From the IMG/VR virus record IMGVR_UViG_3300034062_006701: a DNA stretch of 64,000 nucleotides; one strand, written 5' to 3'. The DNA comes from a virus (lineage: Duplodnaviria > Caudoviricetes). Positions 2,028 through 51,888 of the stretch are shown one piece after another. Each line of letters starts with the position of its first letter. The stretch's first letter is position 1. Made by a program: the position numbers and the translations under genes. The notes below the pieces were generated by a model that saw only the letters and a program-made list of their open reading frames with translations, searched no databases and was not told the DNA's origin.

Positions 2028-3002
2028 ATGAAAGTAAAATGTGCGATGTGTCAGGTAGAATTAAAAAACATTAGTGGCTTATCACATCACATACGTAATA
2101 AACACTCTCTGAACTCAAAGCAGTATTACGATCAATTCATTAAGACAAATAATGCAGGTTCTTGTGTTATTTGTAATAAACCAACATCGTGGAAGAGTCT
2201 GAGCGATGGTTATAAAACGACGTGTTCACATAGCTGTGGTGGAGTATTGCATCGACAACATTTAAAATTAGATGTGATAAAATACAAAAAATTTACTGAC
2301 ACTGTTGCAAAGAATACTAAAAACATATGGTCGTTAAGAGAAGGTAATGAGCAAAAACAACAAATTTCTAATAAAATAAGCAAAACGTTAAAGAAGCGAG
2401 CTAATAAAATGACCACCGAACAAAGACGTAAAACATTTGGATGGCTTAACAAATACACAGGTGTCGACAGACAGAGAGAAATAGACAAACTACTTAAAAC
2501 AGGTATACATGCATGGTGGAAGAATTGTACGCAAGAGCAACGAGAATATGTTCATCTGACAAGACGTGGTGAATACAGACATTGGCTACAGAAAAACAAA
2601 ACCACACTTACAGCTCATGAACACACAAGAGTCGAAATCCGACAAATGTTTAATAAATACATAACAGATTTATTAGCAAAAAAACAATTACGCTTTGACA
2701 ACTATTTACAATATCGCAAAGAAGTTGATAGGTTAAGCAATATAACATACACGAGATATAAAAACATTATTAACCCTGAAAATTTAAAGAGATCGACTCA
2801 TTCCTATCATCTTGACCATAAGGTAAGTGTATATGAGGGATTTATGTACAATATACCACCAGATATTATTTCTTCTGTCTGGAATTTACAAATGCTGTCT
2901 GCAAAAGACAACTACACAAAATCTCTTTATAGCTCGATTACTGTACATCAGTTACTAACTGAATTCAATCAAAAAAAACATGACATTGCCATTACCATCT
3001 AA
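2028..3002 (+). CDS. Free-standing HNH homing endonuclease with N-terminal zinc-finger motifs
   Basis: CxxC..HxxxxH and CxxC..CxxxC motifs; C-terminal HLDHKVS...NLQMLSAKDN..K HNH signature. Confidence 0.7.
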   Translation: MKVKCAMCQVELKNISGLSHHIRNKHSLNSKQYYDQFIKTNNAGSCVICNKPTSWKSLSDGYKTTCSHSCGGVLHRQHLKLDVIKYKKFTDTVAKNTKNIWSLREGNEQKQQISNKISKTLKKRANKMTTEQRRKTFGWLNKYTGVDRQREIDKLLKTGIHAWWKNCTQEQREYVHLTRRGEYRHWLQKNKTTLTAHEHTRVEIRQMFNKYITDLLAKKQLRFDNYLQYRKEVDRLSNITYTRYKNIINPENLKRSTHSYHLDHKVSVYEGFMYNIPPDIISSVWNLQMLSAKDNYTKSLYSSITVHQLLTEFNQKKHDIAITI

Positions 3003-3447
3003 CGGAAAAAAATTCAAACAAGGAATATTTAAACCAAAAAATTTAAAAAAATATATCGGTCAGCAACCTATACGTTATTTGAGCGCGTGGGAGTTAAAAT
3101 TTTTTCGCTGGGCAGATGAAAATTCAAATGTTGTAGAATGGGCGTCAGAATCAGTGATCATTCCATATGTAAGCCCGATGGATCATAAGGTGCATAGATA
3201 TTATACCGACGGTGTAGTTGCAGTAAGAGAGGGAGATGGTGTTATAAGAAAATATATCATAGAAATAAAACCGTCTGCACAAACAGTATTACCAGTAAAG
3301 GGTAAAAAAAGAATGTCAACCATGGTATATGAAACCGCTAGGTACGCACAAAATCAAGCAAAGTGGGAAGCTGCGAAAAAGTGGTGTGATAAGCATGGTT
3401 ACAAATTTCTTATCTTAACGGAAAAGGAACTTGGTATAGATAAATAA
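2980..3447 (+). CDS. gp4: T4 gp4-like head completion protein (TnsA-like nuclease fold)
   Basis: G.FKPKNLKKYIG, YLSAWELKFF.WAD.N..V..WASE...IPY, HRYY.D, IEIKP..QT, N.AKWEAA..WC...G..F.ILTE.EL. Confidence 0.92.
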   Translation: MTLPLPSNGKKFKQGIFKPKNLKKYIGQQPIRYLSAWELKFFRWADENSNVVEWASESVIIPYVSPMDHKVHRYYTDGVVAVREGDGVIRKYIIEIKPSAQTVLPVKGKKRMSTMVYETARYAQNQAKWEAAKKWCDKHGYKFLILTEKELGIDK

Positions 3448-7828: not shown

Positions 7829-7860
7829 AAAAGAGCCGTCCTTAGGACGGCTCTTTTTTT
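7829..7860. terminator. Bidirectional Rho-independent terminator
   Basis: A-tract, gagccgtcc-tta-ggacggctc, T-tract; lies between convergent genes. Confidence 0.88.
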
Positions 7861-7883: not shown

Positions 7884-8792
7884 TTATTGACCCATTGCCT
7901 TTTCTGTGTAAACGTTTATATCCTTTAAAAGCTTCGGTAATAAATGCTTATTTGATGCACGGGATGGATTGATGTCTAACGATCCACGTCTTGAATAAAG
8001 AAGAGTAACAACACAATCTACAACCTCTTCATGTTCCATAATACTAGTAAGAAGCTTTTCTGCGCAAAATTCATGAAACTCATTAACCTCACGCAATGAA
8101 ACAATTTGCTTGAATAGTGATATTGGATCGACAGATGTACCCTTAGTAATAATATTAATATAAGCAGCTCCTGTGTCCTTCTGCTTAGTATGACGGCATC
8201 GTGATCTCAGTGCGTTAGTAAAGTATTTGTTATCACAAAGCGTACCACCGTCTGGTCGACTAATAAACTTAAGATGATTCTCTTTAGCACTATAATCTGT
8301 AATTTCAACATTACTTGTTTTATTTACAATATCATATAGATCGGTATAATCATTAAGAGGGAAAAGACCAACAGAACCTGATTTAAAAAACTTTACTTTA
8401 ACTTCCTTGCCAATAGCGTTTGTGAGATCTGTTGTAATTTGGTTCTCGTAATTTTTAATAGCTTCTTCAACGCTATCACCCATCTTACACATATCGAAAG
8501 AATTCATATAAAGTTTAGCAGACTTTGACTCCACCATAAACTCTGAATCAGCAGGGTATACAAACTTAACCGTACCTGCAACCGGTACACCGTTATTAAG
8601 AAGGAAGGTAGCCTCATGACAGTGCCAGGTATCAAACCCTACAAACATATCATCTTTTATTCCCCATCCGTCTCGAGCAAGGTGCCGAGGCATAGGGTTG
8701 AGAAGCGAAGGATCAAACTGTTCGGTATACACAGCATACGATGCTGATGATCCGAGTGTTTTTGAGGCAATATCGGTTAGGTTTGTTGACAT
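7884..8792 (-). CDS. queF: QueF, NADPH-dependent 7-cyano-7-deazaguanine reductase (bimodular, E. coli YqcD type)
   Basis: Y..QFDP.LL.P.PR, G.D.W, VESKS.KLY.NSF, LRSRCRHTKQKDTG (catalytic Cys/Asp positions), FHE.CAE, YSRRGSLDINP.R. Confidence 0.92.
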   Translation of the reverse strand: MSTNLTDIASKTLGSSASYAVYTEQFDPSLLNPMPRHLARDGWGIKDDMFVGFDTWHCHEATFLLNNGVPVAGTVKFVYPADSEFMVESKSAKLYMNSFDMCKMGDSVEEAIKNYENQITTDLTNAIGKEVKVKFFKSGSVGLFPLNDYTDLYDIVNKTSNVEITDYSAKENHLKFISRPDGGTLCDNKYFTNALRSRCRHTKQKDTGAAYINIITKGTSVDPISLFKQIVSLREVNEFHEFCAEKLLTSIMEHEEVVDCVVTLLYSRRGSLDINPSRASNKHLLPKLLKDINVYTEKAMGQ

Positions 8793-9343
8793 AATATTAG
8801 TTTAATCTGTTCCATTCGTTCTTCAACTGTTCCTTTTACTCGAACGACTTTATTTTGTAAAACACTTCCGTAAGTAGCACTATGTATTACTTCCTCGAAA
8901 ACTTCAATCATCCTGTTTCTAAAGTCAATGTCAATACTTCTCTCACCATCATCGACTAATTCAACATCATACGGATCTGGATATATGATATAATCAAGTT
9001 TATCAATTAGCTTAAAGTACACCCCTTTAGCGTAATCCATAACCCACTTAGACACCTTATCCTCTAAGTGCAAATACCCTGTATAACACAACCCGTCAAG
9101 AATACAGCGATCAAGTATTAACCCTTGTTTTTCGTAAGATATAAGACTATTCTCAATGTGTTTATTAATAATCAAACACTGAGTAATATCATTACCAGCT
9201 TCGTTAATCTGTACACCGAACTGACGTTTAACAAGTCTCGTCACTTCATCAACAAAGTCAAATTTATCAGCATACAGCTCGTTACAAGCTTTTAATAGCG
9301 TCGTCTTACCTATACACTGCGGTCCTGTAAAGCTTACAATCAT
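8777..9343 (-). CDS. P-loop (deoxy)nucleoside monophosphate kinase-like / AAA_28 protein
   Basis: N-terminal Walker A (FTGPQCIGKTT), LILDRCILD motif, DDGER lid motif. Confidence 0.75.
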   Translation of the reverse strand: MIVSFTGPQCIGKTTLLKACNELYADKFDFVDEVTRLVKRQFGVQINEAGNDITQCLIINKHIENSLISYEKQGLILDRCILDGLCYTGYLHLEDKVSKWVMDYAKGVYFKLIDKLDYIIYPDPYDVELVDDGERSIDIDFRNRMIEVFEEVIHSATYGSVLQNKVVRVKGTVEERMEQIKLILCQQT

Positions 9344-9358
9344 ATTACAATTGTACCG

Positions 9359-9706
9359 TCACTTCGCCCATTTTCCACGATTAACGATTTCAGCAATAAT
9401 ACTATAAACAGCAGTATCAAGAAAGGCATCGAATACAGATTCATTAGCTGACTCTAGACTGTTCTTTCTAAGAACAAGGTTAATCAATCGCTGTAGCTTG
9501 TCATTAAGACGAACAACAATAGCTGAAATCGATGCTTTACGCTCTTCAGCAGTATTCAAGGATGATCCAAGTGAGATATTGCCCGGACCGTAATCAAATT
9601 GTTTCTTACAAAACGTAAGATAGTGTTCATGCTGAATTTGTTTAAATTCAGCACAAGTCTGCGGGTACTGTGTTTCAATTGCTTTTACTATTTCTTCTAT
9701 GCTCAT
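9359..9706 (-). CDS. DUF1599 / nucleotide-modification-associated domain protein (MazG-like all-alpha fold)
   Basis: KKQFDYGPGNI, VRLNDKL.RL.NL and ESVFDAFLDTAVYSII match the DUF1599 pattern. Confidence 0.75.
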   Translation of the reverse strand: MSIEEIVKAIETQYPQTCAEFKQIQHEHYLTFCKKQFDYGPGNISLGSSLNTAEERKASISAIVVRLNDKLQRLINLVLRKNSLESANESVFDAFLDTAVYSIIAEIVNRGKWAK

Positions 9707-10253
9707 AATCTTTAAAAAATTGATACCACATAATACTACCTAGTGAGTGTAGCTGTGTAATGACATCCTCCTCTGTTAAACCTCTAATGTTTATAGCATG
9801 TGACGCTATAATCTCACCTTCATCAACAGCAGGTATGACTTTATGAATAACAACACCAGCTGTATTATAGCCAGCTTTAACTGCACGAAGTTGAGGATCC
9901 TTGCCCTTGAGATCTGGATACTCAGTAATAAGACCGGGATGTAAATTATAAATGTGTTTATATTTTTTACAGATATCCTTCGGTATAATTCTTAGATACC
10001 CGTGAAGAGTTATGAGTGGATCTTTGAACGGTTTAAGTACCTTCTTATAGTCTTTCGATTCAGGATTTTTAGGTAAGGTAATCCAATTAAGATTTCCTTT
10101 ATCTTTCTCCTGTTTAAGAACAGGGTTTATTCCATCGTCAGTCTGACGGTTAGTAATAATGGCGGCAGGGATTTTACCGGTATGGTAAATTATATTGTTT
10201 AATTCCGTACCGCTCTGACTAAAAAATGCTATCCAATTTTCGTCTACCTGCAT
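9675..10253 (-). CDS. PurN-like formyltransferase (DpdN candidate)
   Basis: FSQSGT (PurN SGxGS-like), L.GYLRII, NLHPGL (N.HP catalytic motif), GV.IHKV..AVDEG.II. Confidence 0.85.
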   Translation of the reverse strand: MQVDENWIAFFSQSGTELNNIIYHTGKIPAAIITNRQTDDGINPVLKQEKDKGNLNWITLPKNPESKDYKKVLKPFKDPLITLHGYLRIIPKDICKKYKHIYNLHPGLITEYPDLKGKDPQLRAVKAGYNTAGVVIHKVIPAVDEGEIIASHAINIRGLTEEDVITQLHSLGSIMWYQFFKDYEHRRNSKSN

Positions 10254-11056
10254 AGTATCTTCTTAAACATTTTAACATTATATTCCAGAATATCCATCTC
10301 TTCTTCTGTTACATTATGATCAATAAGATCTGCTAGCTTTGTGGATGGCTTTATTGGTAGGCCATATTCAGCATCGTACCGTAAACCATGTAATGCTGCG
10401 ACGATAGGGTTACTAGTATCGCAACTCACAATATTGTAAATGTTACGGTTAACATAATAATTAAATTCTCTCGCCAACGAACAGCCGAGTAAGTGATGTG
10501 GTTTATTCCAGTTCCAAACACCTTTATCAATAAGCTGGTCGATAAAACGCTGCCTACCAGAGCACCACTTTTCGAGTTTCGTTCTACCCTCACCTGTTAT
10601 TTCATAATATGAAAAGTCAAAGCTAATAGCAATCATATCTGCATTATCCGACATAAACTTGTAACAGTCAATTAACTCCTGCCATGTCTTACCTTGTACA
10701 GCTCCGATAGCTCTCGTTACAAACTCACCTTTAATTTGAGTAATATTATTCTTCCAACTACTAAAGCTATCTATTGTCAGACGACTCTCTTCCAGTACAT
10801 CAGGAACAATAAACATATTCGGTTTAATATCGAGAACCGCTGCAAGAAACTTGCTACCTTCAAAAGCATGTCCGAGCTCAAAAATAGAATTATCTAGAAG
10901 AACCTCTCTATTATAGACAGTACGTGCGGTTTTATAATAATTGTAATACGCAGGATGCGTCTCTGTTAAGTGTACCAAACAGTAATCAAAATCAGAAATT
11001 AAATGTGATTTGTCTAATATACTTACAGGGCATTCGTGTGAAACTTTAATTAGCAT
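10244..11056 (-). CDS. TGT-fold 7-deazaguanine transglycosylase paralog (DpdA3-like)
   Basis: LLDNSIFELG (cf. TGT DSGGFQ), VPDVL, AVQG, HHLLG and SCDTS align with TGT catalytic positions; no C-terminal Zn motif; adjacent to queF. Confidence 0.78.
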   Translation of the reverse strand: MLIKVSHECPVSILDKSHLISDFDYCLVHLTETHPAYYNYYKTARTVYNREVLLDNSIFELGHAFEGSKFLAAVLDIKPNMFIVPDVLEESRLTIDSFSSWKNNITQIKGEFVTRAIGAVQGKTWQELIDCYKFMSDNADMIAISFDFSYYEITGEGRTKLEKWCSGRQRFIDQLIDKGVWNWNKPHHLLGCSLAREFNYYVNRNIYNIVSCDTSNPIVAALHGLRYDAEYGLPIKPSTKLADLIDHNVTEEEMDILEYNVKMFKKILCR

Positions 11057-11093
11057 AATTACATTATATATGTAAATAATAATATATCAAGAT

Positions 11094-18615: not shown

Positions 18616-18853
18616 TCTCTTATATAATTCTCTCTTAGAGGGTTTTAATATACCGCCCTTATATCAAAATGCCGTACAGAGTGGTCCGGATGCAGGTATA
18701 ACATCTGGTGATATAAACAATACGTTTCCAAGTAAAATAAGTAACGTAAATATTAAGTTACCAAAATTTAAAAACAAAAAGACTAAACAGCTTCCCAAGG
18801 AAAAGTCAGCCAAGTATCGTCAGGGTACTCATGAACGTGGTAATCAGGTTTAA
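18605..18853 (+). CDS. Small protein of the MKF-motif family
   Basis: Begins MKFNLLYNSLLE; motif shared with other ORFs in the window. Confidence 0.55.
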   Translation: MKFNLLYNSLLEGFNIPPLYQNAVQSGPDAGITSGDINNTFPSKISNVNIKLPKFKNKKTKQLPKEKSAKYRQGTHERGNQV

Positions 18854-19253
18854 ATTTAGCACCAGTTTTGATAAAGAGAGTCGCAAATCGTAGATCAATC
18901 ATCTCATGTAGCTCTTTCTTAATGTGACGTAATGTGTGGCCACGATCTGACAAATCATCAACTACAAGTACATATCTGTCTTTATATTTTTCAATAAACT
19001 TGTTCGCAGGCTTTTGTAGTTCACGGAACTCACCAGTACTCTTTCTGAGCTCATCATCATAGCTTTGTACCGTATAATTAACCACATCATCAATACCGAG
19101 TTTATAAGCTATTAAAGTACCAGGTATTAAGCCACCGCGACCGACAGCAATTACTGCCTCCGGTATCTTATCATCACTTTTAATTAACTCTACAAGCTTT
19201 TCAACCCCGTGATGTATACTAGTCCAAGAAATAAAACACGTCGATTCATCCAT
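18783..19253 (-). CDS. Type I phosphoribosyltransferase (purine/xanthine-guanine PRT-like)
   Basis: IAVGRGGLIPG, VLVVDDLSDRGHTL (PRPP loop), W.TFPWE terminus. Confidence 0.88.
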   Translation of the reverse strand: MDESTCFISWTSIHHGVEKLVELIKSDDKIPEAVIAVGRGGLIPGTLIAYKLGIDDVVNYTVQSYDDELRKSTGEFRELQKPANKFIEKYKDRYVLVVDDLSDRGHTLRHIKKELHEMIDLRFATLFIKTGAKFKPDYHVHEYPDDTWLTFPWEAV

Positions 19254-21072: not shown

Positions 21073-21154
21073 TGGGTAGAGAAGGACTCGAACCTTCGAA
21101 CTCCAAGGAGAGGAGATTTACAGTCTCCGGCAATTGCCACTATGCGATCTACCC
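21073..21154 (-). tRNA. tRNA-Tyr(GTA)
   Basis: Reverse complement GGGTAGA..GGAGA-CTGTAAA-TCTCC..variable arm..GAAGG-TTCGAGT-CCTTC-TCTACCC-A; CCA not encoded. Confidence 0.95.
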
Positions 21155-25478: not shown

Positions 25479-25555
25479 TGGTGGGCCGGATCGGAGTTGC
25501 ACCGATAGTCTCTACCGTTATGAGCAGTGTGTTTTAACTGTTAAACTACCAGCCC
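25479..25555 (-). tRNA. tRNA with CAT anticodon (elongator Met or Ile2), CCA encoded
   Basis: Reverse complement GGGCTGG-TA-GTTTAACAGTTAAAAC-A-CACTG-CTCATAA-CGGTA-GAGACT-ATCGG-TGCAACT-CCGAT-CCGGCCC-ACCA. Confidence 0.88.
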
Positions 25556-30040: not shown

Positions 30041-30050
30041 AATATCCTAT

Positions 30051-30221
30051 ATGAAGTTCAATGTACTAGTAGAAGCCTACCTATCTACACTGTTAGAGGA
30101 TAAGGTTAAGCGTGATCGTTGTCTTTCTAGAGCTGATTCTGTCTATGGTAAGAAGACATCTGCCTATAAGTCCGGTGCTGTTGTTAGATGCCGTAAGGGT
30201 AAAATCTGGAAAAAGAAATGA
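30051..30221 (+). CDS. 56-aa basic late protein of the MKF family (not in ORF track)
   Basis: TAAATA upstream; MKFNVLVEAYLSTLLEDKVKRDRC...SAYKSGAVVRCRKGKIWKKK. Confidence 0.65.
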   Translation: MKFNVLVEAYLSTLLEDKVKRDRCLSRADSVYGKKTSAYKSGAVVRCRKGKIWKKK

Positions 30222-30472
30222 ATTCCTCCTTTGATCAATTAGTAAACTTTCTTCTTGAGTCCTTTGATAAGGAAAAGAAAGAAGGACTTCATGGATGGTT
30301 CAGTCGTAATAAAGGTAAGGGATGGGTAGATTGTAAGACTGGTAAATCATGCGGTAGACAGAAGGGGGAAAAGCGTAGAAGTTATCCGGCCTGCCGTCCT
30401 ACCATGGCAATGTGTACCTCAGCTAAGAACAAGAAAAAAGGCTCCAAACGTATTAGCTGGAAAAAGAAGTAA
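30218..30472 (+). CDS. Basic Cys-containing small protein
   Basis: GLHGWF...WVDCKTGK.CGR.....R.YP.CRP motif recalled from uncultured phage proteins; N-terminus MNSSFDQLVNFLLES. Confidence 0.7.
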   Translation: MNSSFDQLVNFLLESFDKEKKEGLHGWFSRNKGKGWVDCKTGKSCGRQKGEKRRSYPACRPTMAMCTSAKNKKKGSKRISWKKK

Positions 30473-30494
30473 TTCTATTCTATCCTATATCAAT

Positions 30495-34793: not shown

Positions 34794-35219
34794 CTATACA
34801 GTATGATCGGGGTAGGTTGACCCACCCGGAAGACCTACATCATTATTAGTAAAATTCAGATCAACATCTGCTTTATATAGATAGTCCTTCTCAAGAAGGA
34901 GCTCCTTCTTAGCTTGATCGAGATCTTTATTAGTCGGGTATTGTTCCAAATGATCAAGAGACTTCTTAAGAAGATCTGAGATAACATCATTAACAGAGAT
35001 ATCCTTTTCACAAGAATCAGAAATAAGCATCTCGAGTACCTCTCTAGGCCATTCGGAGATCTCAATCTCCATCTTTACATAAGGACGAAGCTCGATTGAG
35101 CCATCATCATGATGTTTAACACTAAACTTAGTTCCAGGACCTGCTCCAATCTCCTGAAGTTCTTCTTCAGTGAACTGAATATAGGCATCGTTAGTTGGTT
35201 GTAGTACTTTCTTTGTCAT
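34794..35219 (-). CDS. AbrB/SpoVT-like DNA-binding protein
   Basis: YIQF.EE.L..IG..PG.KF.V...DDGSIEL.P resembles a swapped-hairpin fold. Confidence 0.5.
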   Translation of the reverse strand: MTKKVLQPTNDAYIQFTEEELQEIGAGPGTKFSVKHHDDGSIELRPYVKMEIEISEWPREVLEMLISDSCEKDISVNDVISDLLKKSLDHLEQYPTNKDLDQAKKELLLEKDYLYKADVDLNFTNNDVGLPGGSTYPDHTV

Positions 35220-35763
35220 AATTGTTTATAGAATTGTATATGATTTCAACAGCCTTATCAACTGTCAATTCGTTATAATAAGGACTTTTATATGGAAGCC
35301 AGACTTCTACATTTGCATCAGCTTCATAAGGAGAATCAATTCCTGACATATTTTCAACTACTCCATCTCTGAACATTCTATAAAGTCCTTTAGAATCTCT
35401 TTGTTCACAAATCTCAAGAGGGGTATCTACAAATACTTCAATAAAATTAGCATTTGAATAACTTGTAAGAATATGACGAGCTTGTTTTCTCATTTCTATA
35501 AGAGGGGAGATACTAGCAACAATGACAGCTTCTGTCTTTTGGCATTCAATCATATTCCTGACAGCATAGATCATTCTATTAACTGCCTTCCATCTTCCCT
35601 CTATATCAAAGCCAACAGGTGTCTTTGTATCAAGTCTTAGAGTGTCACCATCAGCAACACCTGATCTAATACCTTCTATTCTTAATTTAAAATTAAGAGC
35701 ATTAGCAATAGAAGTCTTACCAGCACCAGATAGACCTGTTAACCAAATTACTGTAGGTTTCAT
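35191..35763 (-). CDS. cysC: Adenylyl-sulfate (APS) kinase
   Basis: VIWLTGLSGAGKTSIA, DGDTLR, ISP....R..AR, EVFVDTPLEICEQRD.KGLY, G.DSPYE. Confidence 0.92.
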   Translation of the reverse strand: MKPTVIWLTGLSGAGKTSIANALNFKLRIEGIRSGVADGDTLRLDTKTPVGFDIEGRWKAVNRMIYAVRNMIECQKTEAVIVASISPLIEMRKQARHILTSYSNANFIEVFVDTPLEICEQRDSKGLYRMFRDGVVENMSGIDSPYEADANVEVWLPYKSPYYNELTVDKAVEIIYNSINNYDKESTTTN

Positions 35764-40147: not shown

Positions 40148-40969
40148 TTAGTGTTGTCCACCTTCCCATGTACTACCACAAGGGCCACCACTCTCATTAA
40201 CATCGATCACAATATCTTCTCCTTCAGGTGTTATCAAGGGTATATAATGTCTGCTGATGCGCTGAGTGGATTTTGGAACATAATGGCAGATAAAGGATCT
40301 ACGAAATCTGTCTTTGGATCTATTTGGCCCTGAGCCATGAATTGAACTACCATTAAAGAATAATGTATCACCTGATTTCATAATACAAGGAACAGCCTTT
40401 TTTCCTTTTGGAGTTGGTACAAAATGGTTTGTGAATGACTCTGCTGCATTGGCTTCTTTTGGACATATAATTTCCTCTTCTGCTGTATCTGCTACAAGAT
40501 ACATTCCACCATTCTCTGGATCTGCATCATCGATAGCAGTCCATGCTGCAACACATGTTTGTGGTTCAACTAAAAGATAGAAATTATCTTGATGCATTGC
40601 CTGTCCTCTAGAGCCTGGTGGTTTGTAGTAAAACATGCTTTGAGCAGCAAGTACATCTTCTTGCATAAGCTCTTTCAAGCAAAAAAGAACAGCTGGATGG
40701 ACAAGATTTTTGCGTGATACAGAGTCATAACGATGTGGTTGCAGCACTCTCGGAAATTCTTTTAAAGGGTCTCCATTTGATTCATCTTTAGAGACAGGGT
40801 AAAAATAATCTTCAATAGTACCACTCTTTGCAATTCGATCAAAGGTATTTTTAATTTCTTCAACTTCAGCTTCAGAAAAGAGACCTCTTGCTACAGCATA
40901 ACCATGTTGCTTAAAGGAGGCTTTCATCTCTTCAAGGTTAACAGATTCAGGGAGTGTATATGTACTCAT
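40148..40969 (-). CDS. Phytanoyl-CoA dioxygenase (PhyH) family 2OG-Fe(II) oxygenase
   Basis: F...GY.V.RGLFS..EV, KPPG..GQAMHQDNFY (HxD), W.A.DDA..ENG, G..LFF.G..IHGS.PN.S..R.R. Confidence 0.9.
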   Translation of the reverse strand: MSTYTLPESVNLEEMKASFKQHGYAVARGLFSEAEVEEIKNTFDRIAKSGTIEDYFYPVSKDESNGDPLKEFPRVLQPHRYDSVSRKNLVHPAVLFCLKELMQEDVLAAQSMFYYKPPGSRGQAMHQDNFYLLVEPQTCVAAWTAIDDADPENGGMYLVADTAEEEIICPKEANAAESFTNHFVPTPKGKKAVPCIMKSGDTLFFNGSSIHGSGPNRSKDRFRRSFICHYVPKSTQRISRHYIPLITPEGEDIVIDVNESGGPCGSTWEGGQH

Positions 40970-42116: not shown

Positions 42117-42515
42117 CTACTTCTTAATCTTCAGACTCTTTACATCAACTCCAAACTTCTCAGCAATGTCCTTCAAAGTAACTTCAGTTACTAGGTTTGG
42201 ATTAGAGATTCTATTTCCTTTTGAATCAAACCAAGCTTCAGATCCAAAAGAGTCCTTGCGATGAATCAAATTATTATTCTCATCATATTCTTTCCAAAAT
42301 TCAAATCCATCTGAGTTCTTGTAATGAATCAGATTATTATTCTCATCATATTCATACCAAGATTCAGATCCATCTGAGTCCTTGTAATGAATCCGATTAC
42401 TATTCTCATCATATTCATTCCAATATTCATATCCATCTGAGTCCTTGATATGAATTTCATTTCCCTTTGAATCTTTGGTTACGAGTGGATAATTGATTAC
42501 AGGTTTGTTTTTCAT
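42117..42515 (-). CDS. Protein with tandem 22-aa repeats
   Basis: IHYKDSDG.E.W.EYDENNN repeated about 3 times (66-bp repeats near 42240-42460). Confidence 0.75.
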   Translation of the reverse strand: MKNKPVINYPLVTKDSKGNEIHIKDSDGYEYWNEYDENSNRIHYKDSDGSESWYEYDENNNLIHYKNSDGFEFWKEYDENNNLIHRKDSFGSEAWFDSKGNRISNPNLVTEVTLKDIAEKFGVDVKSLKIKK

Positions 42516-49006: not shown

Positions 49007-50548
49007 TTAGAGATTATCGTTGATTCTGTTGCGAATGTCAACAAGATTCTGATCGATTAGAAGTTCTCCATCTTCAAACACTGGAAGAAGTTCAGAATCT
49101 GTTCCTGCTTCTACCTCATCATAGAGATGATACTGTCCATCAATTGGGTCTATTACAACAGTTAAGAATCCCTTTGCACTATTCTTCATACCATCATCAG
49201 TCTTAGGTTTCTTGAAGATCTCCTTGACCTCTCCGTTGACAATACCAGCAGTTGCCTTAACAGCAAAGCCAAGAGTATCACGAGTCTGATACTGATAGGT
49301 ATACGAACCAATACCAAAGACGATATTGTTGGAAGCAAATCCCTTGTTCTTCAAACGAGTAAGGATTTCATTTGCACGATCAAGTGTAATAGAATCACCA
49401 TAGATCAGCCCAATGTGCGAATCCAAAGACTTGAATCCCTTATCGGTTACAGTACCACCGAAGGTCTCCCATAGAACTTCTACAGCACCATTGATTTCAT
49501 TAAGATCAAGAATCTTATCAGTACCAACTTCCTTAAAGTATCCGTTATCAAGATATACTTCGTCTTCAGTGTAACCTGCAACGATCTTAACAGGATCTCC
49601 AGAGTCAGGACGAATGACAACCTTGCCATCACGAGCCATGATCTCAGCCTTCAGACTAGGAAGAATTTTGGTAAGAACTCCCCAAAAATCAAAGCTATCA
49701 GAGACAATAGAAACAATACCATTAGGATAAAGTTCGGTAATAAGACGCTTAAAGCTATCATACTCATCAGGCTCTCCCTCACCAAACTTGGCATTAAGAG
49801 TCATGACGCTATGCTCTGTAGCTGGAACAGAACAACCAACAAGCTCCTTGTCAGCATTAGCATTGTAGTAGTCTTCGAGGAAGTCGATAGCAGGAACAGT
49901 ATCGGTTCCTACAAAGCTAGTCAAGTGACCTGCACCTGTCATAGCCGCATCCTCTGCTCCACTCATACCACGGAAGCTGAAGTCATGTCCTTGGAATCCA
50001 ACAAAGGATGGATCAACTCCTGTTTCTTCTGCAAAGTTAAGAAGGAGCTTCTTATACTTTCGAGCAAGTGTAGCACTTGTGCAAGGCTTCCAAATAGTAG
50101 CTGAGAGAATAGTCTCAAGGAAGTTAGTAAGCCAGAAGAAATCAGGCAATGTATTCTCAATAGTAAATACTGGAATCTTGGCATCAACAGCAGCACCTTC
50201 AGGAAGAGCCTTGATAAGGATTGGTAGATAACCAAGATCATGCAGGGCTTCAATATGCGAAACATCAGCATCACCACCGAGGGAAGTATCGAGCCTTCTC
50301 TTGTAATAGGAAACAACCTCATTCTTTGGCTTACTAAAAAATTCCGTATTGAACTTCTCAATCAGAAAATCCTTGATAAAGTATTGAAGACCAAAGAATA
50401 CTACCTTATCATCGGTTCCTTCAATCTTAGGAAGATACTTCACCGAACGAGGAGTAAGATTGGAATAGACAAGAGTAGTACCTTCTGGATACATCTTATG
50501 ATGCTGGGTCTTGTAAAAATCGAGCTGCATTAATGGGCGTGTTTTCAT
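49007..50548 (-). CDS. Nicotinamide phosphoribosyltransferase-like protein (NadV/Nampt fold; Namat candidate)
   Basis: DFYK..H..MYP, FFGLQYFI, LTN.LET, HDFSFRG, GTDT.PA, SVPATEHSVM, VSDS.D, IRPDSGDP, IYGDSIT, FG.GS..Q...RDT.GFA.KAT, KS.KG. Confidence 0.95.
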   Translation of the reverse strand: MKTRPLMQLDFYKTQHHKMYPEGTTLVYSNLTPRSVKYLPKIEGTDDKVVFFGLQYFIKDFLIEKFNTEFFSKPKNEVVSYYKRRLDTSLGGDADVSHIEALHDLGYLPILIKALPEGAAVDAKIPVFTIENTLPDFFWLTNFLETILSATIWKPCTSATLARKYKKLLLNFAEETGVDPSFVGFQGHDFSFRGMSGAEDAAMTGAGHLTSFVGTDTVPAIDFLEDYYNANADKELVGCSVPATEHSVMTLNAKFGEGEPDEYDSFKRLITELYPNGIVSIVSDSFDFWGVLTKILPSLKAEIMARDGKVVIRPDSGDPVKIVAGYTEDEVYLDNGYFKEVGTDKILDLNEINGAVEVLWETFGGTVTDKGFKSLDSHIGLIYGDSITLDRANEILTRLKNKGFASNNIVFGIGSYTYQYQTRDTLGFAVKATAGIVNGEVKEIFKKPKTDDGMKNSAKGFLTVVIDPIDGQYHLYDEVEAGTDSELLPVFEDGELLIDQNLVDIRNRINDNL

Positions 50549-51057: not shown

Positions 51058-51888
51058 TTAGATTTGTATAGTGTTTAGTTTAATGTTTTCCTGATTGTTT
51101 GTAAAGGAGTTTGTGCATCCCAATGTATCAAACCTTTCCAAAAGGATGTTAACTCCTTTAGAATAGATGCCATGAGTTGTCCAAAGATGTATATTATATT
51201 GTAAAGGATAAGCTTTACGAATAGCATCTGCTACTCCAAGGAATGTTCCTCCTCCATCACAAATATCATCAACAATAACAAGATCAGTAACACCTTCCTT
51301 GATAAGTCTTTCCTTGGAAACAGAAAAGTCACTATCAACAAAGAATCCCATAAGAGATCCATCAATAGGACTTCTAGTTTTTCCACATTGGATTGCCTTA
51401 TCGACACCAAGAGCACTACAATATCTTTGGGTCTTTTCATGTGCCCCCTTATCGGGTGCAATTAAGACAACTTTATCCAGTGTTATTATTCCAATTTTAT
51501 GAAGATACTTTTCAATATACTTTGCTGGAGATACAGATTCAAGATGAATACCTGCTTGTTTGAATATTTCAATACTAGCATGTGAGTGCAAATCAATGGT
51601 TTTTACATGGGTAATACCAGCGGCAGAAATAAGACTAGCAAGTACGGCAATAGCAAGAGGATCACCATGCGTTGCAATACGATCTTGTCTGGCATAAGGA
51701 AGATAAGGGATTGTAATAGATGTAATATCATTATCTGTATCATATTCATAGGCATTAATAGCCATGAACATTCCAATGAGGTCATCCGAGCTTTGAATCC
51801 TAAAGACAGTATCAAATGCTTCAGGGTTCTCTACACGAACTCCGACTTCACCACCAGAGTATTTCCATGTCTTGTATGCTTGTTTCAT
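51058..51888 (-). CDS. Ribose-phosphate pyrophosphokinase-like protein (Prs fold; Adps candidate)
   Basis: YSGGE..V, IPYLPYARQDR, D.HS, L.APDKGA, K.R, IVDDICDGGGTF, THGI.S.G. Confidence 0.92.
   Translation of the reverse strand: MKQAYKTWKYSGGEVGVRVENPEAFDTVFRIQSSDDLIGMFMAINAYEYDTDNDITSITIPYLPYARQDRIATHGDPLAIAVLASLISAAGITHVKTIDLHSHASIEIFKQAGIHLESVSPAKYIEKYLHKIGIITLDKVVLIAPDKGAHEKTQRYCSALGVDKAIQCGKTRSPIDGSLMGFFVDSDFSVSKERLIKEGVTDLVIVDDICDGGGTFLGVADAIRKAYPLQYNIHLWTTHGIYSKGVNILLERFDTLGCTNSFTNNQENIKLNTIQI

Follow-up and report, generated by a model that had tools for sequence, protein, structure and literature searches.

A predicted operon for fdPreQ1-type 7-deazaguanine DNA hypermodification in an uncultured T4-like phage

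We analysed a 64,000-nt stretch (the window) of the virus record IMGVR_UViG_3300034062_006701, an uncultured T4-like phage known via metagenome assemblies, and find that a compact minus-strand operon at 7884-11056 very probably encodes the late steps of a 7-deazaguanine DNA pathway, the expected product being of the 7-(formylamino)methyl-7-deazaguanine (fdPreQ1) type, which would replace most or all of the guanine in the genome. Judged by its protein sequences the cluster is a diverged copy of the known DpdA3/DpdN/QueF set. This reading is based on homology and common gene order with phage immuto_2-6A, the transglycosylase fold and invariant motifs of DpdA3, the catalytic triad of DpdN and the conserved residues of QueF, together with the presence of FolE, QueD, QueE and QueC in the same phage, conservation across 76 loci, two natural fusion proteins and an arrangement as one promoter-to-terminator unit. 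An earlier note on this DNA had predicted an fdPreQ1-type phage from DpdA3, DpdN and QueF; the module itself is borne out by homology and synteny with immuto_2-6A, whereas fdPreQ1 in the virion DNA is a product that we infer.

The five-gene operon and its products

The earlier note had described five overlapping or abutting genes on the minus strand, and all five open reading frames (ORFs) were found as described, packed within 7884-11056. They encode a DpdA3-type protein with the fold of a tRNA-guanine transglycosylase (TGT; 10244-11056, 270 aa), the PurN-like formyltransferase DpdN (9675-10253, 192 aa), a DUF1599/Nmad1-like protein (9359-9706, 115 aa), a P-loop nucleoside/nucleotide kinase of the AAA_28 family (8777-9343, 188 aa) and a bimodular QueF (7884-8792, 302 aa), where, in this order, the genes overlap by 10 nt and 32 nt at the first two junctions, are 15 nt apart at the third and overlap by 16 nt at the fourth. 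Ahead of DpdA3, at 11063-11090 on the same strand, lies the best sigma-70-type promoter-like site of the region (TTGATA-16 nt-TATAAT, 11 of 12 consensus matches), and 27 nt past the QueF stop codon a strong intrinsic terminator with a 13-bp stem containing 7 G-C pairs and a T-rich tail is found at 7829-7857 (minus strand). Because of this near-consensus promoter and the hairpin terminator the five genes look like one transcription unit under a putative host-type (early) promoter. The -10 box ends 6 nt ahead of the DpdA3 ATG, and the DpdA3 mRNA may thus be leaderless and early. The operon lies on the opposite strand inside a block of virion genes, flanked by the major capsid and baseplate hub genes. 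PHROGs and NCBIfam assignments of the cluster proteins were concordant with Pfam, and a megablast comparison of the cluster with GenBank phages gave zero matches.

The product of 10244-11056 matched phrog_19058 (E 5e-52) and, in tblastn comparisons covering 90-98% of the length for both matches, was 41% identical to the DpdA of immuto_2-6A (E 3e-54) and 44% identical to gp056 of Campylobacter phage CP220 (E 1e-42). The DpdA3 subfamily was founded on the proteins of immuto_2-6A and the CP220 group (PMC10516641). An AlphaFold2 model calculated with 22 family sequences had a predicted local distance difference test score (pLDDT) of 91.2 and a predicted template modelling score (pTM) of 0.89, and its top 50 Foldseek matches in the PDB were all TGTs (E 7e-9 to 2e-7, query template modelling score (TM) 0.56-0.71). 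The TGT-like motifs that had been quoted for this protein are all present, DNSIFELG at residues 55-62, VPDV at 84-87, VQG at 120-122, HLLG at 188-191 and CDTS at 212-215; within them D55, D86, G122, L190-G191 and D213..P217 are invariant in the 22 family members, Q121 nearly so. At the motif level D55 corresponds to D89 of E. coli TGT, D86 to D143, Q121-G122 to Q187-G188, L190-G191 to M244-G245 and D213..P217 to D264..P268, and an hhalign comparison of the DpdA3 profile with the single E. coli TGT (probability 2.3%, last Asp three positions off) is too weak for residue-by-residue mapping.

The zinc tail of tRNA TGTs, the absence of which had also been noted before, is indeed lacking: no CxCxxC...H motif was found past the last barrel strand, where the 57 residues after D213 hold no conserved Cys or His. 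Pfam PF01702 (TGT) did not match the protein at E up to 0.1, and the DpdA3 profile matched no PDB sequence at E up to 10. From the DpdA3 homology, the TGT fold, the motifs and the absent zinc site we classify it as a DpdA3-type enzyme, a zinc-less TIM barrel and predicted guanine transglycosylase. Its identification as a tRNA TGT was rejected, since there is neither a PF01702 match nor a zinc subdomain.

DpdN matched the Pfam family Formyl_trans_N (PF00551, E 1e-16). Its best phage matches were four immuto records (41% identity, E 2e-38), the next match having an E value of 3e-9, and by sequence it is a clear ortholog of immuto DpdN. In 12 DpdN sequences N103, H105 and D144 are invariant and aligned with the catalytic triad of E. 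coli PurN; S12 and G15, which form an S-x-x-G motif, are likewise invariant and aligned with the N-terminal SGNGSN loop of PurN, which we take to hold the 5'-phosphate of glycinamide ribonucleotide. DpdN is predicted to formylate the 7-aminomethyl group of preQ1. The immuto formyltransferase is the protein for which the name DpdN was introduced, and there, too, the activity is a predicted one (PMC10516641). A profile search of 1.84 billion metagenomic representatives gave 3,134 DpdA3-like clusters at E<=1e-3 and 404 at <=1e-30. Among its top 150 matches were two natural DpdA3-DpdN fusions of 447 aa (P0054, L159:554-1897; P0107, L160:2262-3605), located on unrelated contigs and each known from a single contig. 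In one case the kinase gene comes before the fusion; in the other the gene order is QueC - 214-aa ORF - fusion - kinase - QueF.

QueF matched the Pfam families QueF_N (E 2e-25) and QueF (E 2e-10). Its match to TIGR03138 (E 6e-53) reached 180 bits against a cut-off of 293 bits, and hence not the equivalog level. Over the full length it is 29% identical to E. coli QueF (E 4e-33), and ESKSxKLY, the catalytic Cys with an Asp seven residues later and EFHE are all in place in this alignment. We thus regard the product of 7884-8792 as a bimodular QueF, predicted to be an NADPH-dependent reductase that converts preQ0 to preQ1.

Relatives of DpdA3 with 38-80% identity were found in 76 IMG/VR loci, in most of them in the order hub, DpdA3 - DpdN - DUF1599 - kinase - QueF, capsid. 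Some lineages among these loci are without DpdN and are predicted to have plain dPreQ1 as product; others are without both DpdN and QueF, and in these DpdA3 and the kinase are located near a purine phosphoribosyltransferase (PRT) and ribonucleotide reductase. In several relatives (L013, L022 and L024 among them) 1-1.5 kb of extra coding sequence lies inside the operon, in the DpdN/DUF1599 or the kinase/QueF interval, and the end product may be further elaborated in these sister phages. Whereas the known fdPreQ1 system is that of one cultured phage group, the same module occurs here in a large uncultured T4-like clade, and complete guanine replacement may be common in nature. Guanine-replaced DNA resists restriction enzymes, which is relevant to phage-host arms races and to biotechnology.

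In the proposed pathway FolE, QueD, QueE and QueC would convert GTP to preQ0, QueF would reduce preQ0 to preQ1, DpdA3 would exchange guanine for the deazapurine, and DpdN would add a formyl group, whose donor is probably 10-formyl-tetrahydrofolate, to the nitrogen of the 7-aminomethyl group. As a result fdPreQ1 would replace guanine and shield the DNA from restriction enzymes. The DUF1599 protein, the kinase and a guanine-PRT-like protein most likely handle nucleotides near the exchange step, where possible roles are the phosphorylation of a modified deoxynucleoside monophosphate (dNMP), the supply of dGMP and the recycling of guanine. The relative timing of exchange and formylation, as well as the level of the substrate (DNA or nucleotide), is again something we infer. 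In the window 4-mer palindromes containing G and C are not depleted (GATC 0.98, GGCC 1.04, CCGG 1.23), which is weakly consistent with a shielded genome.

Several points weigh against this pathway. The proteins share only 30-42% identity with those of the characterised system, and QueF, FolE, QueD and QueE stay under the NCBIfam equivalog cut-offs. Even for immuto the activity of DpdN is a prediction, as the authors themselves call it, and published trials of DpdA3 in E. coli were unsuccessful (PMC10516641).

PreQ0 supply and nucleotide-handling partners

FolE, QueD and QueE were not found within the window, and a comparison of the QueC and QueD loci of relatives with the window gave no match. 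The earlier note had expected FolE, QueD, QueE and QueC to lie elsewhere in the genome or to come from the host, and the former proved to be the case. The exact DpdA3 protein is also encoded on the 121-kb JGI metagenome contig 3300002835|B570J40625_100000081, which matches the window over 21 kb at 100% identity, without a single mismatch (window position x being record position x + 84,626). On this contig stepwise look-ups of exact proteins located, upstream of window position 1, a QueE-like radical-SAM protein (252 aa) at ~17-18 kb, QueD (212 aa) at ~19-20 kb, FolE (222 aa) at ~21-22 kb and QueC (232 aa) at ~38 kb, so that the four genes fall within 17-39 kb upstream. QueC scored above the TIGR00364 cut-off; for the QueE-like protein, QueD and FolE the best NCBIfam matches were the expected families, below the cut-off. 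FolE, QueD, QueE and QueC are also encoded in all five long relatives, whose lengths are 119-217 kb and of which one is estimated to be complete; a metagenome scan with the QueC of a relative did not return the contig of the window. Because the four genes lie on a contig that is 100% identical to the window, the phage is predicted to make its own preQ0, so that the host would not be needed.

A stand-alone class-II glutamine amidotransferase is encoded on the identical contig (L153:13221-13907, plus strand), two genes away from QueC and beside a glycosyltransferase. It belongs to GATase_6/7, and its best NCBIfam matches are GlmS N-terminal domains. In other phages Gat-QueC fusions are responsible for the archaeosine base, and a tie of this amidotransferase to the deazaguanine pathway is possible. 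The same contig carries, upstream of the window, a gene for a DUF366 protein (E 7e-21; L147:3547-4134, plus strand) and a run of glycosyltransferase and methyltransferase genes (L150:3095-12225); both the run and the DUF366 gene are located just upstream of the portal gene.

The kinase matched AAA_28 (E 2e-13) and phrog_2107 (E 3e-29) and has a P-loop, a DR(C) substrate motif and an Arg-containing lid; G7, G12-K13, R36, D78-R79 and D132-G133-x-R135 are invariant or nearly so in its family. The family profile matched thymidylate kinase 2pbr (E 1.5e-5, full length), deoxynucleoside kinase 8puu and the ribosylnicotinamide kinase domain of NadR, and by these similarities the product of 8777-9343 is a nucleoside/nucleotide kinase resembling all three. 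Adjoining DpdA3 in 71 of the 76 IMG/VR loci, it is the steadiest partner of DpdA3, and most of the loci without it are cut short. In 50,697 GenBank phage records kinase homologs are almost confined to DpdA3 phages, namely the Campylobacter group, with two copies in each phage, and immuto; four weak Streptomyces phage matches were additionally obtained. A second AAA_28 kinase of 251 aa is encoded on the identical contig (L150:1560-2315, plus strand), directly after the QueE-like gene and ~16-17 kb upstream of window position 1. It is 24% identical to the operon kinase over the N-terminal 90 residues, with the P-loop and the INE and DRC.LD motifs in common, and is on this basis a distant paralog of it.

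The 115-aa protein reached Pfam DUF1599 (PF07659) at E 0.045, with 14.5 bits against a cut-off of 25 bits, and DUF1599 was matched by 14 of 17 family members (orthologs of this protein). Its model is a four-helix unit (pLDDT 88.6), and a Foldseek search of the AlphaFold DB returned nearly exclusively Nmad1/DUF1599 entries, the top one with a TM of 0.87 at 43% identity; the model places the product of 9359-9706 in the DUF1599/Nmad1 family. The gene is present in 56 of the 76 related loci, and the protein is probably a nucleotide-metabolism helper. In crAss-like phages a DUF1599 gene lies beside genes for polynucleotide kinase, a kinase/phosphatase, purine/orotate PRT and ThyX, and this neighbourhood is a further pointer to nucleotide metabolism. 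Comparison of the family profile with PDB sequences gave chance-level matches only (E 0.6 or worse). For the model, Foldseek found no significant or specific match in the PDB, and a wide search yielded only generic helical hairpins. A weak match in the PDB fold search (probability 0.47, target TM 0.62) was to 2p06 (AF_0060), which according to SCOP is, we assume, a member of the all-alpha NTP-pyrophosphatase superfamily. The immuto PRA-PH protein was not matched by DUF1599 in hhalign, and a MazG-type function of the DUF1599 protein is a guess. Literature searches on DUF1599/Nmad1 function found nothing useful.

Outside the operon, at 18783-19253 on the minus strand, the window encodes a xanthine-guanine PRT-like protein (Pribosyltran, E 2e-10) that matched GpT-1 (PDB 4trb, E 5.5e-17) and E. 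coli xanthine-guanine PRT (E 2e-14). It is 30% identical to the PRT of immuto_2-6A that is sited between QueE and FolE, and in 16 of the 76 loci a PRT-like gene lies <=10 kb from DpdA3. Possibly the protein belongs to the system and recycles released guanine toward GTP or activates a deazapurine base. The window also encodes nicotinamide phosphoribosyltransferase (NAMPT, 49007-50548, minus strand) close to phosphoribosyl pyrophosphate (PRPP) synthetase, i.e. ribose-phosphate pyrophosphokinase (51058-51888, minus strand). Pairs of NAMPT and PRPP synthetase serve NAD+ salvage in phages and are linked to the countering of NAD-depleting defences; PRPP from the phage synthetase would feed the purine PRT too.

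Auxiliary genes of the window encode an adenylylsulfate (APS) kinase (35191-35763, E 4e-42), a PhyH-family dioxygenase (40148-40969, E 1e-32) and an RHS-repeat protein (42117-42515), all on the minus strand. In the head-gene block a 155-aa protein with a TnsA-like endonuclease N-terminal domain according to Pfam is encoded at 2980-3447 (plus strand), between a 324-aa ORF on one side and the prohead protease gene on the other. The window carries genes for tRNA-Tyr(GTA) at 21073-21154 and tRNA-Met(CAT) at 25479-25555, both on the minus strand; tRNA-Tyr is a natural queuosine substrate in bacteria, and no tRNA-type TGT was found here. At 30050-30470 (plus strand) two small basic ORFs of ~55 and ~80 aa show 76-86% amino acid identity to a stretch beside FolE in two relatives (G001 and G002), where they sit at a different genomic position; the pair may be a mobile or duplicated cassette. 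A link of this tblastx match (30090-30474) to the pathway via the FolE region of the relative was rejected, as it comprises only the two small conserved basic ORFs.

Level of the base exchange and identity of the base

According to the published view the base is inserted after replication, argued from the fact that every deazaguanine phage has a DpdA; the kinase is unmentioned (PMC10516641). Our literature search for a newer paper on the DpdA3 mechanism found nothing useful. We give not quite even chances to a pre-replicative version of the fdPreQ1 pathway, in which the exchange would take place on a free deoxynucleotide. A pyrophosphatase would generate dGMP, DpdA3 would swap its guanine for preQ1 and DpdN would formylate it, the linked kinase and the paralog adjacent to QueE would then rephosphorylate the product, and the phage family-B polymerase would incorporate the modified deoxynucleoside triphosphate (dNTP). 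Our proposal that DpdA3 itself is a deoxynucleotide base-exchange enzyme, which makes fdPreQ1-dNTP together with the kinases and a dGTP-to-dGMP pyrophosphatase (MazG or HD elsewhere, perhaps DUF1599 here), is a tentative one. If true, it would explain why guanine is replaced to 100% only in DpdA3 phages, and the guanine-PRT-like enzyme would return the released guanine to GTP, from which the pathway itself starts.

The argument for exchange on the nucleotide starts from the kinase, which is the steadiest neighbour of DpdA3 (71 of 76 loci), is nearly restricted to DpdA3 phages in the 50,697 phage records and has a second paralog adjoining QueE. In the phages with measured DNA an NTP pyrophosphohydrolase lies beside DpdA3, PRA-PH/MazG-like in immuto, HD in CP220 and dUTPase/MazG in phiST. 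Replacement is 100% in DpdA3 phages as opposed to <=30% for the DNA-acting DpdA1, 2 and 4, cells infected by CP220 reportedly contained free ADG nucleoside, and DpdA3 alone failed in E. coli (PMC10516641). The missing zinc subdomain of DpdA3, the alignment of the S-x-x-G loop of DpdN with the SGNGSN loop of PurN, and the guanine-PRT-like and ribonucleotide reductase genes near DpdA3 in relatives point in the same direction. However, this evidence is indirect, being largely association by gene neighbourhood, and all characterised TGT and DpdA enzymes act on a polynucleotide; we know of no TGT-family enzyme that acts on a mononucleotide. Moreover, canonical MazG and PRA-PH families were not found in the five long relatives, and no link between DUF1599 and MazG was detected by PDB sequence, fold or hhalign comparison. 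The authors who defined DpdA3 favour post-replicative insertion (PMC10516641).

In such a post-replicative version, which we regard as possible but somewhat doubtful, DpdA3 would exchange guanine in new phage DNA, DpdN would formylate preQ1 in DNA or already at the stage of the free base, and the kinase, the DUF1599 protein and the PRT would serve nucleotide supply in general, their genes simply being carried along with the cluster. It agrees with the published interpretation and with DpdA1, DpdA2 and bacterial DpdA, which act on DNA (PMC10516641), and the DpdA3-DpdN fusion fits two enzymes working at the same DNA site equally well. It leaves unexplained, however, why this kinase family accompanies DpdA3 in phage lineages that are unrelated to each other, why guanine is fully replaced only where DpdA3 is present and why DpdA3 alone failed in E. 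coli. The kinase, DUF1599, the PRT and the DpdA3-DpdN fusions constitute a concrete set of proteins with which to address how DpdA3 reaches total replacement, be it before or after replication.

A base other than fdPreQ1 is unlikely. It might be plain dPreQ1, with the formyltransferase acting on another substrate, or a further derivative, or the genes might serve the modification of phage or host tRNA instead of DNA. The chemistry of DpdN is a prediction, the end product varies in the clade, as sister lineages lack DpdN or both DpdN and QueF, a class-II glutamine amidotransferase is located two genes from QueC, and the phage encodes tRNAs. Yet DpdN is a clear immuto ortholog and forms a fusion with DpdA3 in two proteins from metagenomes, no QueA/QueG-type genes occur among the scanned ORFs of the window or on the upstream contig, and DpdA3 lacks the zinc subdomain of tRNA TGTs. 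In addition, all three DpdA3 phage groups that were examined chemically carry the base in their DNA (PMC10516641).

Comparison with known systems

The closest counterpart of the fdPreQ1-type operon is that of immuto_2-6A, which has the same order DpdA3 - DpdN - kinase - QueF, with 41%, 41%, 30% and 37.5% identity, respectively, and, like the phage studied here, combines it with a full preQ0 pathway and a guanine-PRT-like gene. Here a DUF1599/Nmad1 gene takes the place of the 50-aa ORF that immuto_2-6A has between DpdA3 and the kinase, there is no MazG/PRA-PH gene beside DpdA3, the operon runs on the opposite strand amid virion genes, with the major capsid gene on one side and the baseplate hub gene on the other, and the preQ0 genes are 28-49 kb away, whereas in immuto they are adjacent. 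Host and phage lineage differ as well. The immuto phage contains 345,000 fdPreQ1 per 10^6 nucleotides and gives no deoxyguanosine (dG) peak, i.e. dG is fully replaced (PMC10516641).

CP220, which has a dADG system, resembles the present phage in its DpdA3 (44% identity), in a kinase of the same family directly after it and in the two kinase paralogs per genome. It differs in being without QueF and DpdN, in an HD-kinase fusion upstream and in its product, 7-amido-7-deazaguanine. In the DpdA1 and DpdA2 phage systems and the bacterial Dpd systems (dPreQ0/dADG) only 0.1-30% of G is replaced (PMC10516641). What these have in common with the operon described here is base exchange by a member of the TGT superfamily that is fed by the preQ0 pathway. 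The protein encoded in our window, in contrast, has neither a Pfam TGT match (E up to 0.1) nor a zinc motif, whereas the DNA-acting DpdA enzymes are presumably recognisable members of the TGT family.

In the hydroxymethyl-dC scheme of T4, gp56 is the dCTPase, gp42 the dCMP hydroxymethylase and gp1 the dNMP kinase. The DpdA3 operon may follow the same logic, in that a pyrophosphatase would yield the dNMP, the base would be altered on the dNMP, and a dedicated kinase would pass it to the dNTP pool, leading to complete replacement. The base-modifying enzymes of the two systems are not homologous, so that the analogy is one of function, and the nucleotide-level action of DpdA3 on which it depends is hypothetical.

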